Positions 3,803 through 44,004 of a stretch of 64,000 bases of DNA are shown here, in pieces. The notes below the pieces were generated by a model. The model was not told where the DNA came from. It searched no databases and saw only the letters and a list, made by a program, of their open reading frames with translations. The stretch's first letter is position 1; each line of letters begins with the position of its first letter. Position numbers and translations under genes: made by a program. The stretch comes from Acidimicrobiia bacterium (lineage in GTDB: Bacteria > Actinomycetota > Acidimicrobiia > Acidimicrobiales > SHLQ01), in contig JAWPMS010000001.1 in NCBI GenBank assembly GCA_033344795.1, positions 1,158,992 through 1,222,991 on the forward strand, given 5' to 3'.

Positions 3803-3874
3803 GAAGAGAGAGTGTATTGCATCTCAACCCAACACACGGTCCGCCCGGTGGGGAGATCTCCCGAGACCCCTTGT

Positions 3875-4168
3875 TCATCCATCGCGGACAATGAGGCGTT
3901 CTGCGTGCGCGACCGCTCGAGCATCGCCAAGCCTGACCTCAACAGAGGTGACAGACCCACGAAACGACACCCTCACGAGCGTTGCACCGTTGCGCTCCGC
4001 GGCAACCTGCGCGGCCTCTGAACCTCCTGCAGCACCGGCAAGTGCTGCTGCGTCAGCCGCTGTGGCCGCACGTGCATCATCGATTGCGGCGTCGCCAACG
4101 GCAACGATGCCAATCAGGAGTGCCGCGGTCAGAGAGAGGCCCATGAGCCAACCGAGTAAACCCACCAT
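3875..4168 (-). CDS. Small TadE-like / Rv3654c-family membrane protein
   Basis: 97 aa; N-terminal TM segment, then AATAADAAALAGAAGG...NGATLVRVSFRGSVTSVEV, resembling the helicase/secretion-neighbourhood TadE-like family; no other tad genes in the window. Confidence 0.5.
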   Translation of the reverse strand: MVGLLGWLMGLSLTAALLIGIVAVGDAAIDDARAATAADAAALAGAAGGSEAAQVAAERNGATLVRVSFRGSVTSVEVRLGDARAVAHAERLIVRDG

Positions 4169-6789: not shown

Positions 6790-8748
6790 CTAGATGTCCA
6801 GGAAGCGAACGTCTTTGGCGTTCGTCTGGATGAAGTGTTTGCGGCGAGACACGTCCTCGCCCATCAACGTGCTGAAGACCTCGTCGGCCATTGCTGCGGT
6901 TTCGACCGACACCTGCAGGAGGGTTCGGTCGCCAGGGTTCATCGTGGTTTCGGCGAGTTCCTGCCACTGCATCTCGCCAAGGCCCTTCAGACGCTGAAAG
7001 TCCTTCTTGTGGTTCGGGTGTTCCTCGAGCCAGCTGTCCTTCTCGCGATCATCCTTGAGATAGACCTTGCCTTTGCCAACGTTGGTCGAATAGAGCGGCG
7101 GCTGGGCGATGTAGATGTGGTTGTTCTCGACGAGCTCGCGCATCTGGCGGAAGAAGAAGGTGAGCAGCAACGTACGGATGTGACTGCCATCGACATCGGC
7201 ATCAGCCAACAAGATGATCTTGTGGTAGCGGATCTTGCTGAGATCGAACTCGTCGCCGATACCCGCACCGATCGCTTGGATGAGCGTCTGCACTTCGAGG
7301 TTTTTCAACATCTTGTCGAGGCGAGCGCGCTCGACGTTGAGAATCTTGCCTCTGATGGGCAGGATCGCCATCGTTCGCGGATCGCGCGCCTGGATAGCGG
7401 ACCCACCAGCGGAGTCGCCCTCGACGATGAACAGCTCTCGTTCTCTCGGGTCCTTCGATGAGCAATCCTTGAGCTTCTCGGGCATGCCAGCGCCGTCGAG
7501 CGCTGTCTTGTTGCGAATCGTGTCTCTCGCTGCACGAGCGGCCTCACGTGCTCGCTGTGCGGCTATCGACTTGTGGATGATGAGCTTGCCCTCAGCGGGG
7601 TTCTCCTCGAGCCATTCGGCCAGCTTTTCGTTCGTGGCCTTCTCGACCATCGACCGGACCGACACGTTGCCGAGTTTGTCCTTGGTCTGCCCCTCGAACT
7701 GTGGGTCCTGCAGGCGGACGGAGATGATGGCGGTCAGACCTTCACGAACATCGTCTCCGGAAAGATCCTCGGAGTCCTTCAGCAGGTTCTTGTCTTTTCC
7801 GTACTTGTTGATCGTTCGAGTGAGCGCCGAGCGGAACCCGGTCTCGTGCATACCGCCGCCGCCGGTGGTGATGCCGTTCGCGAAGCTGTGCAAACCATCG
7901 GCGTTGAAGCCGGTGTTCCACTGGAATGCGATTTCGACCTCTTGGGTCTCTTCGGCCACCTCGTAGTAGCCAACCTTGGCGAACAACGCTTCCTTCGACT
8001 GGTTGACGTGGCGCACGAAATCTTTGATGCCGCCCTCGTAGTGGAACTCGATCCAACCGTCTTCGCCCGCATCCGCGTGCACCTCGGTCCGACGCAGATC
8101 CTGGAAACGAATTCGCAAGCCACGATTGAGAAACGCCATCATCTGGAAACGATCGAGGAGGGTCTGGGCCCGGAACTCGGTCTCTTCGAAGATGGTGTCG
8201 TCGGGCCAGAAACGAACGGTCGTGCCCGTGCGGTCGTCGGGAGAGTCGCCGCGCACCTCGAGCTTGGTTTTGACCGCTCCGCCGTCTGCGAAGTCCATGT
8301 AGTGATGCTTGCCTTCGCGATCGATCTGTACTTCGACCTTCTTGCTCAGCGCGTTGACGACGGAGATACCCACGCCGTGCAGGCCGCCGGAGACTTTGTA
8401 TCCGCCGCCACCGAACTTGCCGCCAGCGTGCAGAACGGTCATGACGACCTCGGCTGCCGACATTCCTTCGTACTTGGGATGTTCGCCGGTGGGAATCCCA
8501 CGACCGTCATCTCGGACCTCGACCGAATCGTCGGGGTGCACGATGACTTCAATTGCGCTGCAATACCCCGCCATCGCCTCATCGACGGAGTTGTCGACCA
8601 CTTCGTATACGAGGTGGTGAAGACCGGTCGGCCCGGTCGATCCGATGTACATGCCTGGGCGCTTGCGCACAGCCTCGAGGCCCTCGAGAACCGTGATGTT
8701 TTCTGCACCGTAGGAGTTCGTGTCGTCGCTCAACGCGTGACCTTTCAC
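6790..8748 (-). CDS. gyrB: DNA gyrase subunit B
   Basis: 652 aa; GLEAVRKRPGMYIGS, GGLHGVG, EGDSAGG and PLKGKILNVE-like motifs; GTG start, a TTG a few codons later is an alternative. Confidence 0.97.
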   Translation of the reverse strand: MKGHALSDDTNSYGAENITVLEGLEAVRKRPGMYIGSTGPTGLHHLVYEVVDNSVDEAMAGYCSAIEVIVHPDDSVEVRDDGRGIPTGEHPKYEGMSAAEVVMTVLHAGGKFGGGGYKVSGGLHGVGISVVNALSKKVEVQIDREGKHHYMDFADGGAVKTKLEVRGDSPDDRTGTTVRFWPDDTIFEETEFRAQTLLDRFQMMAFLNRGLRIRFQDLRRTEVHADAGEDGWIEFHYEGGIKDFVRHVNQSKEALFAKVGYYEVAEETQEVEIAFQWNTGFNADGLHSFANGITTGGGGMHETGFRSALTRTINKYGKDKNLLKDSEDLSGDDVREGLTAIISVRLQDPQFEGQTKDKLGNVSVRSMVEKATNEKLAEWLEENPAEGKLIIHKSIAAQRAREAARAARDTIRNKTALDGAGMPEKLKDCSSKDPRERELFIVEGDSAGGSAIQARDPRTMAILPIRGKILNVERARLDKMLKNLEVQTLIQAIGAGIGDEFDLSKIRYHKIILLADADVDGSHIRTLLLTFFFRQMRELVENNHIYIAQPPLYSTNVGKGKVYLKDDREKDSWLEEHPNHKKDFQRLKGLGEMQWQELAETTMNPGDRTLLQVSVETAAMADEVFSTLMGEDVSRRKHFIQTNAKDVRFLDI

Positions 8749-36867: not shown

Positions 36868-37689
36868 ATGCACAGTTCGGACGCCCTTCGACTCGACGAA
36901 GACCGCTGCTACGACGCGCTCGTCAGCCGCGATCGGCGATTCGATGGGCAATTCATTGCGGCGATCACCTCAACCGGAATCTACTGCCGACCAAGCTGCC
37001 CGGCTCCTGTGCGCCCGAAACGCAAGAACGTGCGGGTGTACGCGACGGCCGCGGCCGCGCAACAGGGTGGATTCCGGTCGTGTAAACGTTGCAGGCCCGA
37101 CGCGGCGCCAGGATCACCGGAGTGGGATCGCCGCGGCGACCTCGTTGGTCGAGCGATGCGGCTCATCGAACGCGGTGAAATCGATCGCATCGGCGTGAAG
37201 GGTTTGGCTGCTCGCCTTCATGTGAGCGAACGGCATCTCAACCGCATGTTGAACGAAGCCGTCGGCGCCGGTCCCATTGCGCTTGCCAGAGCGCAACGCG
37301 CCAACCTCGCTCGAGTACTTCTCGAGACCACCCAAGTACCCGTCACCGACACGGCGTTCGCCGCCGGCTTCGCCAGCATCCGACAGTTCAACGACACGAT
37401 TCGAGCCGTCTACGATCGCACCCCGAGCGAACTTCGACAGAACGCCAGCAACCAAACCGCCGACAGCGCTGAAACGTCGAGTCCATTGGAGATCCGGCTG
37501 TGGTTGCCCGCGCGTGCGCCCGTCGATCATGACTGGATGTTCGGATTTCTGTCTGGCCACGCGACACCAGGGATCGCCACCGGAGACCGATCCTCGTTCT
37601 CTCGATCGCTCTCGTTGCCCGGCGGTCCTGCTCGAGTACACGCACGCCATGACCCACAAAACGCGGCAGGTCTATGGGCAACGTTCTAA
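36868..37689 (+). CDS. Ada N-terminal (methylphosphotriester methyltransferase Zn domain) - AraC HTH - partial AlkA N-domain protein, ends at in-frame TAA
   Basis: YCRPSCPAPVRPKRKNV...GFRSCKRCRPD matches the E. coli Ada Cys4 site; AraC HTH; the next ORF continues in the same frame. Confidence 0.8.
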   Translation: MHSSDALRLDEDRCYDALVSRDRRFDGQFIAAITSTGIYCRPSCPAPVRPKRKNVRVYATAAAAQQGGFRSCKRCRPDAAPGSPEWDRRGDLVGRAMRLIERGEIDRIGVKGLAARLHVSERHLNRMLNEAVGAGPIALARAQRANLARVLLETTQVPVTDTAFAAGFASIRQFNDTIRAVYDRTPSELRQNASNQTADSAETSSPLEIRLWLPARAPVDHDWMFGFLSGHATPGIATGDRSSFSRSLSLPGGPARVHARHDPQNAAGLWATF

Positions 37690-37737
37690 CTGCAGGGCCT
37701 CAGCGATCTTGCCGACGCAATCTCTCGGACGCGTCGA

Positions 37738-38355
37738 ATGTTCGACCTCGATGCGGACCCCGAACACATCGATGAGACCTTGGGGTCAGACCCCGTGATT
37801 GGACCATTGCGCCGGCAGCGACCAGGCGTACGGGTCCCGGGTGCGGTCGACGGATACGAAGCCGCCCTTGGCGCGATCATCGGTCAACAGATTTCCGTAG
37901 CGGGAGCGAACACGATGATGGGTCGACTGGTCGACGCCGCACCTACCCCGATCGACTCGCTTCACCGTACGTTTCCCGACGCGACGACGGTCGCGAACAT
38001 GGATCTGAGTTCGATCGGCCTCACCACCCGTCGCCAGGCAACCATCAGGGCCTTGACGGACAGCGTGCTCGACGGCGCGATCGATCTCGACCCGGGCGCC
38101 GATCGAGAATCGACTCGAGCTTCATTGCTGGAGCTTCCAGGAATCGGTCCGTGGACCGCCGATGTGATCGCGATGAGAGCACTCGGAGATCCCGACGTCT
38201 TGCTCGCCTCGGATCTCGTCATCGGAAGACGGCTCGCCGAAACCAACAGTGGCGACTTGGCCCATCTCTCCCCGTGGCGTTCGTATGTCACCTGCACCTT
38301 GTGGGCCACGCGAGATGACCAGACCACACTCCCCAAGAAGGAATCACGCTCATGA
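37738..38355 (+). CDS. alkA: DNA-3-methyladenine glycosylase II (HhH-GPD domain), 3' part of the split ada-alkA
   Basis: MFDLDADPEHI aligns with E. coli AlkA SRLFDLQCNPQIV; HhH LPGIGPWTADVIAMRALGDPDVLLASDL with the catalytic Asp context. Confidence 0.8.
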   Translation: MFDLDADPEHIDETLGSDPVIGPLRRQRPGVRVPGAVDGYEAALGAIIGQQISVAGANTMMGRLVDAAPTPIDSLHRTFPDATTVANMDLSSIGLTTRRQATIRALTDSVLDGAIDLDPGADRESTRASLLELPGIGPWTADVIAMRALGDPDVLLASDLVIGRRLAETNSGDLAHLSPWRSYVTCTLWATRDDQTTLPKKESRS

Positions 38356-38852: not shown

Positions 38853-40301
38853 TTATTCGCGCCAGCTGCGCTCGAACGGCAGACGCCACGCTTGCGGAGC
38901 GATGAGTTGGTGGATTTGGTTGGGTCCCCACGTCCCGCGGGCGTACGGGCGCACGGGTGGCATGTCGCTGAGAAGTGGTTCGGACACTTCCCACAGCCGT
39001 TCGACTCCTTCCGCAGAGGTGAACAGCGTGCGGTCGCCACGAACCGCGTCGAGAATGAGCCGCTCGTATGCCTCCAACACTTCATCAAAGCCGCTGGATG
39101 TGTCGGCAGAGAACTGCATCGACAGCTTGTCGAGCCGAAATCCGGGGCCAGGTCGTTTTCCATAGAAGGACAACGACAGTCGCGACTCATCAGCGAGATC
39201 GAACGTCAGATGGTCTGGCCCGAGCTGGCCGACGCCCGAGCCGGCTGGGAACATCGACTTTGGTGGTTCTTTGAAGGCGATCGAAATGATGCGTTTGCCC
39301 TCGGCCATGTTCTTGCCCGTCCGGAGATAGAACGGCACACCCGCCCAACGCCAGTTGTCGATGTAACAGCGCAGCGCAATGAAGGTTTCAGTTGTCGACT
39401 CGGGGTCAACACCCTCTTCGTCGCGATATCCGGCGTATTGACCTCGAACGACATCGCGCGGTCGAAGTGGAAGCATCGATCGAAAGACCTTGTTCTTCTC
39501 TTCGGTGATGGCGCGCGGTTCGAGTGATGTTGGAGCCTCCATCGCGGTGAAGGCCATGACCTGGAACAGGTGCGTCACAACCATGTCTCGATAGGCGCCG
39601 GTTGCTTCGTAGAAGTCGGCGCGCTGCTCGAGGCCGAGCTCTTCGGGCACGTCAATTTGCACGTGGTCGATCATGTTTCGGTGCCAAATCGGCTCGAACA
39701 AACCGTTTCCGAAGCGAAACGCCAAGATGTTCAGGGCCGCTTCCTTCCCCAGGAAATGGTCGATGCGAAAGACCTGCGACTCATCGAAGACCGCGTGCAC
39801 CGCAGCGTTGAGGACTCGTGCGCTCGCGAGATCGGTTCCGAAGGGTTTCTCCATCACGACGCGGCTGTTCTCGACCAGGTCCGCTTGCCGCAGCGTGTCG
39901 ATGACGGCGAGTGCCGCTCGAGGGGGCACGGAAAGATAGTGCAGCAATCGTTGCGGCGTATCGAGCTCGGACTCGACCTCAGCGATCGCGTTGCGGAGCG
40001 ACTCCGGTGTTCCTCCCGGAGCCCAAACGAGTCGTCGGGAGAAGTCTTCCCAGTTCTCGTCGCTGATCGTTCCTTCGAACTTGCCGAGCGATTCGCGGGC
40101 GAAGGCGACGAACGACTCCTGGGTGTGTTCGTCGAGCGAAGTGCCCACGATCCGGACGTGAGGGAGCAGGCCGTTCGTGAGCAGCCGAAAGAGGCCAGGC
40201 AAGAGTTTTCGACGAGACAGGTCGCCGGTTGCACCGAAGAGTACGACCGTTGTCGGAGGTGCTGGGTCGTGAGAAGCGTGAGACTTCGCCGTGTTCGTCA
40301 T
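38853..40301 (-). CDS. zwf: Glucose-6-phosphate 1-dehydrogenase
   Basis: 482 aa; LFGATGDLSRRKLLP, RIDHFLGKE active-site motif. Confidence 0.93.
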   Translation of the reverse strand: MTNTAKSHASHDPAPPTTVVLFGATGDLSRRKLLPGLFRLLTNGLLPHVRIVGTSLDEHTQESFVAFARESLGKFEGTISDENWEDFSRRLVWAPGGTPESLRNAIAEVESELDTPQRLLHYLSVPPRAALAVIDTLRQADLVENSRVVMEKPFGTDLASARVLNAAVHAVFDESQVFRIDHFLGKEAALNILAFRFGNGLFEPIWHRNMIDHVQIDVPEELGLEQRADFYEATGAYRDMVVTHLFQVMAFTAMEAPTSLEPRAITEEKNKVFRSMLPLRPRDVVRGQYAGYRDEEGVDPESTTETFIALRCYIDNWRWAGVPFYLRTGKNMAEGKRIISIAFKEPPKSMFPAGSGVGQLGPDHLTFDLADESRLSLSFYGKRPGPGFRLDKLSMQFSADTSSGFDEVLEAYERLILDAVRGDRTLFTSAEGVERLWEVSEPLLSDMPPVRPYARGTWGPNQIHQLIAPQAWRLPFERSWRE

Positions 40302-40358: not shown

Positions 40359-41462
40359 TCAGCTTGTTACTTCAGGTCCGACGTAGCGAGCGCTTGGTCG
40401 GATGATCTTGCCGTCGGCTGCTTGTTCGAGAACATGAGCGGACCAGCCGATGACTCGACTCACCGCGAAGCTCGGCGTGAACAGCTCCGGCGGGAGGCCA
40501 GCAAGGCCCAGGGCGACAGCCGCCCAATACTCCACGTTGGTCACGATCGTTTGCTCAGGACGCCATTCAGCGAGGGTGCCCAGAATGACCTGCTCGATCT
40601 CGAGGGCTCGCTTTGCGAGGTCTCCTCCGATGTCTTCGGCCGCCTCACGCAGCACCACCCCTCTCGGGTCCTCCGCCCGATACACCGCATGCCCAAACCC
40701 CATGACCTTGTTGCCAGCATCGAGAGTCTCGTGCACCCACGCCGCGGCGTTTTCGGCCGTGCCGATCTCATCGATCATCATCAGTGCTCGCCCCGGTGCA
40801 CCTCCGTGCAGCGGTCCGCTCAGCGCTCCGAGTCCCGCAACGAGTGCGCTCGCCACCGATGCTCCTGTACTTGCAACGACTCGGGTCGTGAACGTCGATG
40901 CATTGAATCCGTGGTCAATCGTCGAGACGAGGTATTTCTCGACAGCGGTGGCGCAGCTCGTTTCAGGAACCGACCCGGTCGACATCCGCAGATAATCGGC
41001 GGCGTGCGACAGCGTCGCGTCCGGTTCGATCGGCTCGCAACCCAGCCGACGTCGATGGTGACGTGCAACGATGGTGGGAACGATCGCGACCAATCGGAGC
41101 GCATCTTCGCGACGTTGGGCCGTATCGATGTCGAGCACCGGCCGATGTCCTTCAACCTCGGCGGTGGCCAACAACGCAGCCCTGATGATCGACAGCGAAT
41201 CGGCCGAATAGGGCGACATCAGGTCGACGAGTTCGGCGACGGCCGTCGGGAGGACCCGTCTCTGACCGAGCTCGATGGCCGGCGATTCGGGCGGAAGGGC
41301 ACCGTCGATGACCAACGTCAGGACGTCATCGAGAGATCGGTTCCGGGCAAGCTCCGCGGCGTCGTACTGTCGATAGTGGTAGAAACCTTCGCTTCCTCTG
41401 ACAGAGCCGATCGTCGTGTCGGCGACGACGACACCTTTGAGTCCTGCGGGGGCGATATTCAT
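40359..41462 (-). CDS. Citrate synthase family protein (CitA-like paralog)
   Basis: ATG at 41462 (GAGGAG SD); [34 protein letters not shown]; NVEYW where NVDF is usual. Confidence 0.85.
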
Positions 41463-41506
41463 GTGAACTCCTCGTGCTGGAACCTCCAGAGTCGGGGCCG
41501 GGTAGT

Positions 41507-41549
41507 ACATTGACAACGTTGATCCAATCAACGTTGATTCAATCAATGT
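41507..41549. promoter_or_regulatory. Operator-like array of ATCAA/TTGAT half-sites, including the 12-bp perfect palindrome ATCAACGTTGAT
   Basis: CAACGTTGAT at 41514..41523 and 41529..41538; ATCAACGTTGAT at 41527..41538; outer arms ACATTGA/TCAATGT; lies between the divergent citrate-synthase genes. Confidence 0.45.
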
Positions 41550-41565
41550 AAAGAAGGAACCGCTC

Positions 41566-42804
41566 ATGTCCCGATTGAGCACGGAGGAGACGGCCGCTCG
41601 GCTCGGGGTCAAGCGCGAGACCGTCTATGCGTACGTGAGTCGCGGAATCTTGACCCGACAAAAGGCGGTGGATGGCAAAGCATCCACGTTCGACGAATTC
41701 GAGGTCGACCGTCTTCGCCGCCAGCGAGTCGGCGATCATCCAGGTCGCCTCGAGGCGGCGGTGACCACCTCCATCACGGAGGTGAGCGATGGTGTTGTCC
41801 GATATCGCGGAACCGCCGTCGACGAGCTGATCGAGGCGGGCATCTCCTATGAGGAAGCCGCCGCGTTGTTGTGGGAGGTTCCGTCGTCTTCGGAGCCATG
41901 GACCGCTCCATCGAACATCATCGAGGCTGTCGAGCTCGCGATGAGGCAGCTCCCCTCGTCGGCCACGTTGATCGATCGTCTCCTCGCAGCAACCGTGATG
42001 GCCGGCGCGCACGATCCATTCCGTGACGACCGCACACGCGCAGGCGCGTCCAGCTCAATGCGTCATCTCGTTGCCGCCACGATCGAGGCGCTGCCCATGC
42101 AAAAGGCCGTCACGTTCAAGAGCTCAGCGACGATCGCTCAACGCCTTTGGCCCCGGCTCACCACAGCTCCACGAACCAACGCGTGGATTCTCGATCGAGC
42201 CCTCGTATTACTCGCAGACCATGGCATGGCATCATCGACCCTTGCGGCGCGTATCGCCGCGAGCACCCGTGCCGGCCCCCACGCATCGGTCATTGCTGGC
42301 CTCGGTGCGCTGAACGGGCCACTTCATGGCGCCGCGAGCGGTTCGGTACACGCCCTTCTACAGCGCGCCGAAGCCGCAGGTCCCGACGTCGCCATTGCAG
42401 AAGCGCTCCGAAACAACGGCCGATTGCCCGGCATCGGGCACTTCATCCACCGTACGTCTGATCCACGATTCACGATCATGATGTCTTCACTTGCCGAATC
42501 GACCCTTAGTCGACGTCGTGTGGCAATCGTGAACGAGGTTGTCGACAGGACCTCGGACCGGATCCGCGCACCGCACAATATCGACTTCTCTCTCGGCAGT
42601 CTGACCTACGCCGCTGGAATGGAGCCAGACGCTGGAGAACTGATCTTCGCTCTCTCGAGAGTTGTGGGCTGGGTTGCGCACACGCTCGAAGAATATGAAG
42701 AAGCGCCACTTCGATTTCGGCCGGTCGGCCGCTACGACGCCAACCGGCCGAGACCTGCACCCGTTTCGACCGAGGACCTCGCAAGACAAGGCCGAGCTTG
42801 GTGA
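41566..42804 (+). CDS. Citrate synthase family protein with N-terminal excisionase/MerR-type HTH domain
   Basis: 412 aa; [26 protein letters not shown] (HTH_17-like), then [43 protein letters not shown]. Confidence 0.8.
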
Positions 42805-43280
42805 CGGCGTTCGTTCTTCCGCGTGGCGCGACCGGTTTCAACATCGACGACCCACCCCGCGAGCGAAATGATCGTCGAGGAAATTTCGTCGCGTGGGCCC
42901 GCACCGTTGCCACTTCACTCGACAGCACAACAACGATCGTCGAGTCCGTCGGCAACTTCGATGTCGTCGAACTCGAAACGCTCGGGTTCTGGTTGCTCCA
43001 GAACCGCTTTTTGCCGTTGGTTGGCGTCATCGCTCAGCCACCCACCGCAGGATTCGCCTATGCGGTTGATGCCGAGTTCGTCGATTTGCCGCCACTGCCT
43101 GGTCATCTCGGTGGATGGGGTCCTCGGCTCCTGGCCGCCGAGATCGTCAACCGTGCGCTGTCGCCCAACGATTGGAAGGAGTTCAGCGACCCAGCGCTGG
43201 CCCATGCCGACCGTTTCAAGCCAACGCAGATCGGCCACGTGTTGTTCAACTACTGGGATCAGTCTACGAAAAGGTGCTGA
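42798..43280 (+). CDS. Hypothetical protein
   Basis: 160-aa ORF (TTG start overlapping the upstream stop) with protein-like composition; no recognised motif. Confidence 0.4.
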   Translation: MVTAFVLPRGATGFNIDDPPRERNDRRGNFVAWARTVATSLDSTTTIVESVGNFDVVELETLGFWLLQNRFLPLVGVIAQPPTAGFAYAVDAEFVDLPPLPGHLGGWGPRLLAAEIVNRALSPNDWKEFSDPALAHADRFKPTQIGHVLFNYWDQSTKRC

Positions 43281-43314
43281 TCCAAGGCTGGAGAACGTCT
43301 CTACACTTGCGCGG

Positions 43315-44004
43315 GTGAAGACCGAGCTCCCTGACGCCCCAGGAACTGCCGAACTTCGCGCCCACGGTCACGACAAGCCGCGGTTTCGCGGTTTCATCCA
43401 CCTGCTCGCGTTCTCCAGCGCTCTCACCCTGGCTCCGATTCTCATCGTCGTCACGCCTGGAGTCGCCGACCGTTTCATCATGGCGATCTACGGAATCGCC
43501 ATCGCCGGCCTGTTCGGCGTGAGCGCTCTCTATCACCGCAACGACTGGAGCGATCGAGCAATCGCGATCGTTCGGCGAATCGATCACTCGATGATTTTCG
43601 TCGCGACCGCTGCCACGCACACGCCGATCGCCCTGATTGCGCTCCCGTCGCGCCCTGGCTGGACGCTCTTCTTCATTGTTTGGACCGGCGCGATCGCGGG
43701 CATCGTCGGCCGAGTGTTCTTTCCGAACGCTCCCTACGCGGTGGTCGCCGTGCCATACGTTCTCGTCGGCTGGTCATCGTTGTTCGTCATCAACCACGTG
43801 TGGTCATCGCTCGGTGTCGCCGGCTTCACGTTGCTGGTCGTCGGTGGCGTCCTCTACACCGCGGGCGCTGTGATCTACGCACTGCATCGACCGAACCCGT
43901 GGCCGCGAAGTTTTGGCTATCACGAGATCTTTCACGCGCTGACGGTCGCAGGAGCGGCCTGTCACTACGTCGTGATCGCAATATTCGTCCGCAACCTCAT
44001 TTAG
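43315..44004 (+). CDS. Hemolysin III / PAQR family membrane protein
   Basis: Track ORF 42823..44004 trimmed to the GTG at 43315; KPRFRGFIHLLAF..., ALYHR, RIDHSMIF, HEIFHALTVAGAACHY. Confidence 0.8.
   Translation: MKTELPDAPGTAELRAHGHDKPRFRGFIHLLAFSSALTLAPILIVVTPGVADRFIMAIYGIAIAGLFGVSALYHRNDWSDRAIAIVRRIDHSMIFVATAATHTPIALIALPSRPGWTLFFIVWTGAIAGIVGRVFFPNAPYAVVAVPYVLVGWSSLFVINHVWSSLGVAGFTLLVVGGVLYTAGAVIYALHRPNPWPRSFGYHEIFHALTVAGAACHYVVIAIFVRNLI

Follow-up and report, generated by a model that had tools for sequence, protein, structure and literature searches.

The 64-kb window (the whole stretch of DNA analysed, 64,000 nucleotides from an Acidimicrobiia bacterium) carries two divergently transcribed citrate synthase (CS) paralogs: on the plus strand a protein in which a helix-turn-helix (HTH) head is joined to a citrate synthase fold, hereafter HTH-CS, and on the minus strand a CitA-type citrate synthase, the gene of which we call citA. 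We consider it quite probable that HTH-CS is a local regulator of citA and of its own gene, presumably acting as repressor and autoregulator, with its citrate synthase fold serving as the ligand sensor. This proposal is built on what is observed at the locus and at its relatives, namely the domain architecture, the invariant residues, the synteny of the two genes, the conservation of a putative operator array in the 103-bp gap between them (41463-41565) and the co-occurrence of this array with HTH-CS. The features of the locus are the following.

40359..41462, minus strand: CitA-type citrate synthase gene, 367 amino acids (aa), His/His/Glu active site, with the codon of Glu311 (in NVEYW) at 40530-40532
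41468..41473, minus strand: Shine-Dalgarno sequence of citA, GAGGAG, 5 nt 5' of the ATG at 41462, read from the sequence
41506..41550, no strand: putative operator array, 45 bp, from the repeat and palindrome search
41553..41558, plus strand: Shine-Dalgarno sequence of HTH-CS, GAAGGA, 7 nt 5' of the ATG at 41566, read from the sequence
41566..42804, plus strand: HTH-CS fusion gene, 412 aa, Pfam HTH_17 + Citrate_synt
41572..41733, plus strand: N-terminal winged HTH domain of HTH-CS, aa 3-56, recognition helix at about aa 17-25 (RETVYAYVS)
41755..42708, plus strand: citrate synthase fold of HTH-CS, aa 64-381, by Pfam
42220-42222, 42325-42327 and 42439-42441, plus strand: codons of HTH-CS H219, H254 and H292
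42466-42468, 42583-42585 and 42658-42660, plus strand: codons of HTH-CS R301, D340 and R365
42718-42720, plus strand: codon of HTH-CS R385, just past the Pfam envelope

The HTH-CS fusion and its CitA-type partner

The first-pass annotation of this DNA had described the plus-strand protein as an excisionase/MerR-like HTH joined to a full citrate synthase fold, and hmmscan (HTH_17 + Citrate_synt), AlphaFold2 (AF2) and Foldseek all agree with that description. Using Pfam, HTH_17 (PF12728) is found at aa 4-50 with 29.9 bits, above its gathering score of 27, while the NCBIfam model TIGR01764 'excise' (20.0 bits, cutoff 28.8) and Pfam MerR_1 (17.2 bits, gathering score 21.6) score below their thresholds. 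In the AF2 model, residues 3-56 adopt a beta-alpha-alpha-beta-beta(wing)-alpha order according to DSSP, and the head modelled alone has a predicted local distance difference test score (pLDDT) of 80. The best Foldseek match of the head is the Xis protein of mycobacteriophage Pukovnik (4J2N, root-mean-square deviation (rmsd) 1.3 A, target-normalised TM-score (TMt) 0.75), and the Streptomyces protein BldC (6AMA), RacA (5I44) and SoxR/MerR proteins are also recovered (probability 1.0, E ~0.01), with TMt values of 0.61-0.82 for Xis, BldC and RacA. An HTH fold is thus present in the N-terminus, by a Pfam score above gathering and by structural likeness to Xis, BldC and MerR proteins; a PDB sequence search with the head alone gave a weak MerR-like match only (2DG6, E 0.35).

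We aligned 31 members of the HTH-CS family, 46-83% identical to the window protein, and found G14, V15, K16, T19 and the whole run Y21-G27, which forms the end of the recognition helix and the residues just beyond it, to be invariant. The head is more conserved than the citrate synthase domain in all 78 orthologues compared (mean identity to the window protein 61% vs 42%), a conservation that matches the near-invariant TCAA/TTGA tetramers of the operator described below. An exhaustive HMMER search with the 65-aa head (E <= 1e-3) collected 700 representatives; in the 149 best-scoring of them, 58 of the 59 proteins of 350-480 aa carry a citrate synthase domain, and the shorter ones are mostly fragment-like, as judged by eye from their C-terminal sequences. 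This subtype of head therefore appears to be essentially restricted to citrate synthase fusions.

The remainder of HTH-CS is matched by Pfam Citrate_synt from aa 64 to 381 (194.7 bits, E 3.1e-57, profile positions 6-352 of 357). The full AF2 model, made from the 31-sequence alignment (mean pLDDT 86.4), consists of the head, a linker of lower confidence and the citrate synthase fold, which starts at about residue 64, directly after the helix formed by residues 44-56, and the ten best Foldseek matches of this part are citrate synthase and PrpC structures (TMt 0.62-0.74). The first-pass annotation had also claimed that the His/His/Asp positions are retained, and GPLHG, GIGHFIH and NIDF are indeed present: H219, H254 (GPLHG), H292 (GxGH; GIGHFIH), R301 (DPR), D340 (N[IV]D; NIDF), R365 and R385 are invariant in the 31-member alignment, and by their motifs we take these residues to be equivalent to H238, H274, H320, R329, D375, R401 and R421' of the pig enzyme. 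N[VI]D is found in 115 of 120 homologues. At the position of the Asn in the DHE-x-N-AST motif of the enzymes, HTH-CS has an invariant alanine, Ala222. Its scores are below the cutoffs of all 21 NCBIfam models for citrate synthase, 2-methylcitrate synthase or citryl-CoA lyase that it matches, the best being TIGR01800 (151.5 bits, cutoff 421.3), with NF009005 (PRK12350) at 141.3 bits, under its cutoff of 332. HTH-CS forms a clade of its own. The public collection contains a protein identical to HTH-CS, and a search at E <= 1e-5 scored 2613 homologues, in a set unfiltered for the HTH fusion.

The minus-strand gene encodes a full-length citrate synthase (Pfam Citrate_synt, PF00285, 328.7 bits against a gathering score of 27, E 5.5e-98, profile positions 1-357 of 357), which belongs to NCBIfam NF009005 (PRK12350, 'citrate synthase 2'; 349.9 bits vs a curated cutoff of 332). 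Its active-site motifs are GPLHGG, GFGHAVY and NVEYW. The closest PDB sequences are B. subtilis CitA (2C6X, E 1e-73) followed by M. tuberculosis CitA (6WGY/8GI7, E ~1e-68), and all of these contain NVEF. The presence of NVEYW instead of the expected NVDF had been pointed out in the first-pass annotation; the motif is there as described, but it is not a degenerate one, as NVE[YF] occurs in 120 of the 120 closest CitA-type homologues, and the Glu is presumably the acidic catalytic residue of the CitA subfamily. Together with the solved B. subtilis and M. tuberculosis CitA structures, this count rules out NVEYW as the sign of a dead enzyme. Enzymes of the Glu type are considered active, in line with the names of the PDB entries. 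As for the start of citA, a database protein of 367 aa, 99% identical, begins at the position equivalent to the ATG at 41462 and homologues align from residue 1-5; we preferred this start to the TTG at 41612 or the ATG at 41510 because of the Shine-Dalgarno sequence GAGGAG.

The putative operator array and its conservation with HTH-CS

The gap of 103 bp, the repeat of 15-bp period, the 12-bp palindrome and the outer arms that had been noticed at first reading were all recovered by our repeat and palindrome search. From 41506 to 41550 the array reads TACATTGA / ACAACGTTGAT / CCA / ATCAACGTTGAT / TCA / ATCAATGTA, the left arm and the first unit sharing base 41513. It comprises a direct repeat of CAACGTTGAT at 41514 and 41529 (15-bp period), the perfect 12-bp palindrome ATCAACGTTGAT at 41527-41538 and the outer arms TACATTGA at 41506-13 and TCAATGTA at 41543-50, and it holds six TCAAYR/YRTTGA half-sites and two abutting 17-mers of the form YRTTGA-N5-TCAAYR (41517-41533 and 41532-41548), with extra half-sites on their flanks. 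The GC content of this stretch is 0.49 vs about 0.6-0.69 in the flanks. CAACGTTGAT is found nowhere else in the 64 kb (3 matches over both strands, 0.12 expected, 3 being reached in 0 of 100 shuffles), the 17-mer with at most one mismatch has two matches in the window, both inside the gap, and the regulon search gave no further motif copies elsewhere in it.

To follow the pair across genomes, one genome per GTDB species was scanned, which confirmed HTH-CS relatives at no fewer than 592 places (>=592), mainly in Actinomycetota and including Streptomyces, and the best 80 loci were kept. These come from Acidimicrobiales metagenome-assembled genomes (MAGs), the closest at 68-71% identity, Ca. Microthrix, Jiangellaceae, many Streptomyces, Micromonospora, Actinoplanes, Kribbella, Actinoalloteichus and a few Myxococcota and Vicinamibacterales MAGs; no Mycobacterium locus is among these 80. 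A divergent CitA-type gene, 38-79% identical to the window CitA, lies at most 600 bp upstream of HTH-CS in 75 of them, and the remaining five are two loci at a contig end, two with insertions between the genes and one without citA.

We then aligned the window gap with the 75 orthologous gaps, each anchored on its best match to YRTTGA-N5-TCAAYR. All 12 specified positions are present in 63 gaps and 11 of the 12 in another 8, so that 71 of the 76 gaps have at least 11/12. The consensus is tGTCAAYRTTGATyNrRTCAAYRT (GTCAAYRTTGAT-N3-RTCAAYRT) with unconserved flanks over the 76 gaps. In a footprint alignment of the Acidimicrobiales the array ACATTGACAAC.TTGA...TCAAC.TTGA...TCAA is invariant while the neighbouring bases are free to vary. 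The dyad proposed in the window is thus conserved at orthologous loci across classes (71/76 gaps), and three half-sites, GTCAAY / RTTGAT / N3 / RTCAAY, describe the conserved unit better than a 12-bp palindrome does. In Streptomyces and Micromonospora a single 17-mer is accompanied by one more half-site on its left and a degenerate one on its right.

The fetched loci amount to 683 kb (mean GC 0.70) and contain 68 exact copies of the 17-mer, 65 of them within the gaps, which account for 1.8% of the bases. The remaining three sit immediately before HTH-CS or citA, at two loci where an insertion has separated the pair: in Streptomyces sp. NBC_01537 (L057:2660-3880) an IS110-family transposase lies between citA and HTH-CS and the motif is kept before HTH-CS, and in an Actinoplanes locus (L058:3166-3950) an insertion of about 800 bp splits the pair and leaves one motif copy before each gene. 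The motif also stays with HTH-CS where citA is absent or replaced (L036, L105, L120), HTH-CS being divergent from a cupin gene in L105, and a Myxococcales MAG in which HTH-CS has no citA neighbour has a degenerate copy upstream of HTH-CS. In L184, HTH-CS is convergent with and downstream of citA, and the operator is before citA only.

A scan of metagenome contigs with the 23-nt consensus, blind to the genes, returned 120 loci, of which 63 have HTH-CS and/or citA beside the motif. On contigs with a GC of at least 0.6 the proportion rises to 63 of 74 matches (85%). Of the 57 matches away from citrate synthase genes, 11 are on such contigs and 46 on contigs of GC < 0.6, where they are expected by chance because the motif is AT-rich. 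A chance origin of the motif is excluded by the gap consensus, the enrichment of the 17-mer, this metagenome scan and the rarity of CAACGTTGAT in the window.

As a control, we considered eight CitA-type proteins, 64-68% identical to the window CitA and encoded on megabase contigs, and inspected 6-7 kb around each. Seven of these citA loci lack an adjacent HTH-CS, and neither the 10-bp palindrome nor the 17-mer is found in the 6-7 kb of any of the seven, whereas the eighth (L209) has a divergent HTH-CS, two 17-mers and the palindrome. The operator therefore tracks HTH-CS rather than citA as such. The contexts of the seven are Bac_luciferase-citA-P450 in four (L201, L206, L207, L210), MeaB-citA-P450, FAD-oxidase-citA and AAA_21-citA-IS110 transposase.

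These neighbourhoods have a recurrent composition: in Acidimicrobiia-like genomes, the gene after citA often encodes a cytochrome P450 and the one before it a luciferase-like monooxygenase or methylmalonyl-CoA mutase/MeaB. L204 and L209 both have MM_CoA_mutase/MeaB upstream of citA-P450, and L204 resembles L209 minus the HTH-CS gene between MeaB and citA. This propionyl/methylmalonyl-CoA neighbourhood may hint at the physiological role or the ligand.

Predicted regulation and alternative explanations

HTH-CS can be viewed as a one-component transcription factor derived from an enzyme, in which a flexible linker of about 10 residues would join the HTH to the citrate synthase fold. Citrate synthase folds are obligate dimers with shared active sites and a dimer of HTH-CS would therefore present two HTHs, which could bind the 17-bp inverted repeat YRTTGA-N5-TCAAYR with half-site centres about 11 bp apart; one dimer per 17-mer is favoured because the palindrome TCAAYRTTGA would set two heads only 5 bp apart. 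The array starts 44 bp from the citA start codon and ends 2 nt before the Shine-Dalgarno sequence of HTH-CS, so that the HTH-CS transcript must start inside or upstream of it, and its position in the 103-bp gap implies that both transcripts initiate within it or read through it, which favours repression of citA and autorepression. Occupancy of the array would then occlude or roadblock both transcripts. The oxaloacetate/citrate site of HTH-CS is intact, which suggests ligand binding as the signal: rotation from an open to a closed domain arrangement is typical of citrate synthases, and in the HTH-CS fold oxaloacetate, citrate or an acyl-CoA, once bound, could bring it about, re-position the HTHs and alter their affinity for DNA. 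The expression of CitA, an auxiliary citrate synthase, would in this manner be coupled to the supply of substrates to the tricarboxylic acid (TCA) cycle. The DNA binding of HTH-CS, the sign of the regulation, the ligand and any catalysis of its own are what we infer here; of the metabolite-sensing autoregulator of a citrate synthase pair that the first-pass annotation had suggested, the HTH fold and the conserved dyads that track HTH-CS stand, while sensing and DNA binding keep the status of predictions.

Several points weigh against this proposal. The operator co-occurs with HTH-CS (71/76 gaps, 65/68 exact matches, 0/7 controls), which is an association and not binding, and both DNA binding by HTH-CS and its regulatory effect are predicted from sequence. 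An HTH-CS gene could sit elsewhere in the seven control genomes, 6-7 kb having been covered in each. The first-pass annotation placed the array over both promoter regions; a consensus scan of 41300-41750 gave no sigma-70-like promoter, so that this overlap, like the choice of repression over activation, is an argument from geometry. The gap of Streptomyces is longer, with the operator about 55-140 bp from the estimated HTH-CS start, a distance that would also suit activation. Xis and BldC, the nearest relatives of the head, bind direct repeats head to tail and not dyads, and, since a reading of the array as direct repeats of 15-bp period is possible too, the stoichiometry of binding is uncertain. 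The replacement of Asn by Ala222 and the scores under all NCBIfam citrate synthase cutoffs count against taking the ligand or any catalysis of HTH-CS for granted. Finally, MtrA has been reported at a different site in the gap of the S. coelicolor pair SCO5831/SCO5832 (PMC12323332).

HTH-CS could instead be primarily an active citrate or 2-methylcitrate synthase, i.e. a trigger enzyme, whose HTH serves autoregulation or tethering to the nucleoid without a dedicated sensor. The complete and invariant set of His/His/Asp and three Arg residues, the full citrate synthase fold predicted with high confidence and the presence of 2-methylcitrate synthases among the best NCBIfam and Foldseek neighbours all speak for such an enzyme. 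Nevertheless, the protein is far under every citrate synthase, PrpC and citryl-CoA lyase cutoff (151 vs 421 bits), the Asn of the active-site motif is an invariant Ala and, in each of the 78 orthologues, the citrate synthase domain has diverged faster than the HTH, and we regard this alternative as rather unlikely, though worth keeping in mind; it overlaps with the regulator proposed here, the sole difference being whether catalysis is retained or not.

It is improbable, in our opinion, that the array is the operator of another regulator encoded elsewhere (e.g. a global carbon or growth-phase regulator) and that the HTH of HTH-CS has some other role. MtrA, which has been reported at the SCO5831/SCO5832 gap with both genes up in the delta-mtrA strain (PMC12323332), would be a candidate of this kind, and look-alike palindromes occur elsewhere, such as between an XRE-cupin regulator gene and an MBL-fold gene. 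However, the MtrA site TTGACTTAACTGTCCA is a different sequence that lies beside the array; the array is missing at the seven citA loci without HTH-CS and present wherever HTH-CS is adjacent; 85% of the exact matches in high-GC metagenome contigs are at this pair, unlike what a global regulon would give; the window has no further copies; and both the HTH and the operator are unusually conserved. A function of the palindromes as RNA, that is as a hairpin in the 5' untranslated region of either transcript (an attenuator or a stability element), seems very improbable: the segment 41500-41570 does fold at -19.3 kcal/mol (z = -3.07 vs shuffles), but it has no Rfam match at E <= 1, the variable central YR of neighbouring units are complementary in 13 of 61 loci only, so that no pairing is preserved, the TCAA/TTGA tetramers are conserved at the level of sequence, and the element, located in a divergent gap, works whichever way it faces the genes (L184, L058).

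If the proposed regulator is compared with known systems, trigger enzymes and enzyme-fold regulators such as PutA, BirA, NadR and MocR/GabR (HTH-aminotransferase-fold) come closest in logic. Like HTH-CS, they fuse a DNA-binding domain to an enzyme fold with a ligand site, and they too pair this with a presumed operator before their own gene and a pathway gene, a local and dedicated logic; their heads are ribbon-helix-helix (PutA), BirA-type winged HTH or GntR-type winged HTH domains, in place of which HTH-CS has an excisionase/BldC-like HTH_17. BldC (6AMA) and Xis (4J2N) are the best structural matches of that head (rmsd 1.3-1.5 A over about 49 columns, 28-29% identity), and their sites, like the one described here, are AT-richer repeats in arrays. 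Both are small independent proteins (about 55-70 aa) and form head-to-tail polymers on direct repeats, whereas the HTH-CS head is tethered to a dimeric enzyme fold and its site combines dyad symmetry with a 15-bp direct period. The MerR family (SoxR, CueR, MtaN) has the same winged-HTH topology, with weak similarity to MerR_1 and 2DG6, but HTH-CS lacks, in its AF2 model, the long antiparallel coiled-coil dimerisation helix, the citrate synthase fold coming directly after the HTH, and no promoter with a 19-20-bp spacer was detected in its gap.

Citrate synthase controls the entry of carbon into the TCA cycle, and we know of little that has been established on the regulation of the auxiliary CitA-type synthases of actinobacteria. 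For B. subtilis, Jin and Sonenshein are said to have described in 1994 a LysR-type repressor, CitR, divergent from the minor citrate synthase gene citA. The layout of citR-citA is the same as here, with a dedicated regulator divergent from a citA of the same subfamily; unlike CitR, the regulator proposed here is a paralog of citrate synthase headed by an HTH_17 domain, and the operator sequences are unrelated. The M. tuberculosis CitA orthologue has been studied structurally (Rv0889c; 6WGY, 8GI7, 8GLB); it is an enzyme of the type encoded by the minus-strand gene, with the Glu kept in NVEFW, and its gene is presumably flanked by a LuxR-type gene and not by HTH-CS. In Caulobacter, the citrate synthase CitA controls the cell cycle by a different, (p)ppGpp/CtrA-linked route that does not depend on its catalysis (PMC7083601). 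It too is a citrate synthase paralog, with a regulatory role such as is proposed for HTH-CS; unlike HTH-CS, it has no DNA-binding domain or operator.

Full-text literature searches gave no description of an HTH-citrate-synthase fusion or of its operator, nor did we find the citrate synthase fold described as the effector domain of a transcription factor in the literature searched. In S. coelicolor, SCO5831 ('citrate synthase-like', citA3) and SCO5832 (citA4) form a divergent pair and have been treated as putative citrate synthases (PMC9739823, PMC12323332). The reported MtrA site is 16 bp from the start codon of SCO5832 and 92 bp from that of SCO5831 (PMC12323332), and from this geometry (-92/-16) and the 'citrate synthase-like' annotation SCO5831 is probably the HTH-CS of this pair. 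The published site is absent verbatim from all fetched loci; in all the Streptomyces loci among them the equivalent of it, the conserved block TTGATTCGACTGTCCATGMTTGACT, is on the citA side of the gap (e.g. L042:1098-1270, L022, L077). A second conserved block of the Streptomyces gaps, GGATACGGTG, precedes the ATG of HTH-CS by about 10 nt; it could represent a -10 region or else a short leader.

If the proposal is true, the citrate synthase fold would be a new type of effector domain for bacterial one-component regulators, and a gene that hundreds of genomes list under the plain names 'citrate synthase' or 'citrate synthase-like' (SCO5831 probably among them) would be given a function. An oxaloacetate/acyl-CoA-responsive transcription factor with its operator could serve as a biosensor of central-carbon flux in antibiotic-producing Streptomyces. 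The highly conserved operator and the probable occurrence of the pair in the genetically tractable S. coelicolor make it ready for testing. A broader idea, on which we would put slightly less than even chances, is that HTH-CS founds a widespread, so far unrecognised family of transcription factors with a citrate synthase fold as sensor, in which a rotation driven by oxaloacetate or acyl-CoA is read out as affinity at an operator of the TCAAYRTTGA type; HTH-CS would then be a direct sensor of the flux at TCA entry that controls an auxiliary citrate synthase. A bolder extension would be that HTH-CS heterodimerises with its CitA paralog, the enzyme titrating its own repressor.

Look-alike sequences and neighbouring genes

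Two kinds of sequence resembling the operator were met in the fetched loci. A perfect palindrome, AATGTTGATGACATCAACATT, lies upstream of a gene for an MBL-fold hydrolase in three of them (L141:2130-2165, L123 at about 1596, L157 at about 1109), and in L141, the only one of the three that was checked, a regulator with an XRE-type HTH and a cupin domain is encoded divergently across the palindrome. We considered AATGTTGATGACATCAACATT as a possible member of an HTH-CS regulon and rejected it, since, given the divergent gene in L141, it is probably the operator of the XRE-cupin regulator itself. Dense repeat arrays of the GTCAAC/GTTGAC type are also present on high-GC metagenome contigs (L180:1520-1620, L127 at about 8320-8400, L100 at about 3810-3890, L090/L112), adjoining genes for FtsK/SpoIIIE-like, diacylglycerol-kinase-like, MarR, WYL-regulator or AlkZ proteins, with no citrate synthase gene near. 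They resemble the operator half-site and may belong to a plasmid or an integrative and conjugative element. Given these arrays and palindromes, we do not claim a regulon of HTH-CS wider than the gene pair.

In the window, HTH-CS is followed on the plus strand by an open reading frame (ORF) for an HlyIII-family membrane protein (42823-44004; Pfam match at aa 185-382), the N-terminus of which is probably overextended in the ORF as listed (393 aa). Downstream of citA is a glucose-6-phosphate dehydrogenase gene on the minus strand (38853-40301). A plus-strand gene encoding a fusion of Ada (Zn-binding + AraC HTH) and AlkA (36868-38355) is broken by a single in-frame TAA at 37687-37689. Its AlkA_N domain is divided over both ORFs (profile positions 2-56 and 81-118) and the frame is unchanged across the stop, the protein reading LWATF, stop, LQGLSDLADAISRTRRMFDLD; the interruption could correspond to a pseudogene, a sequencing error or a split gene.

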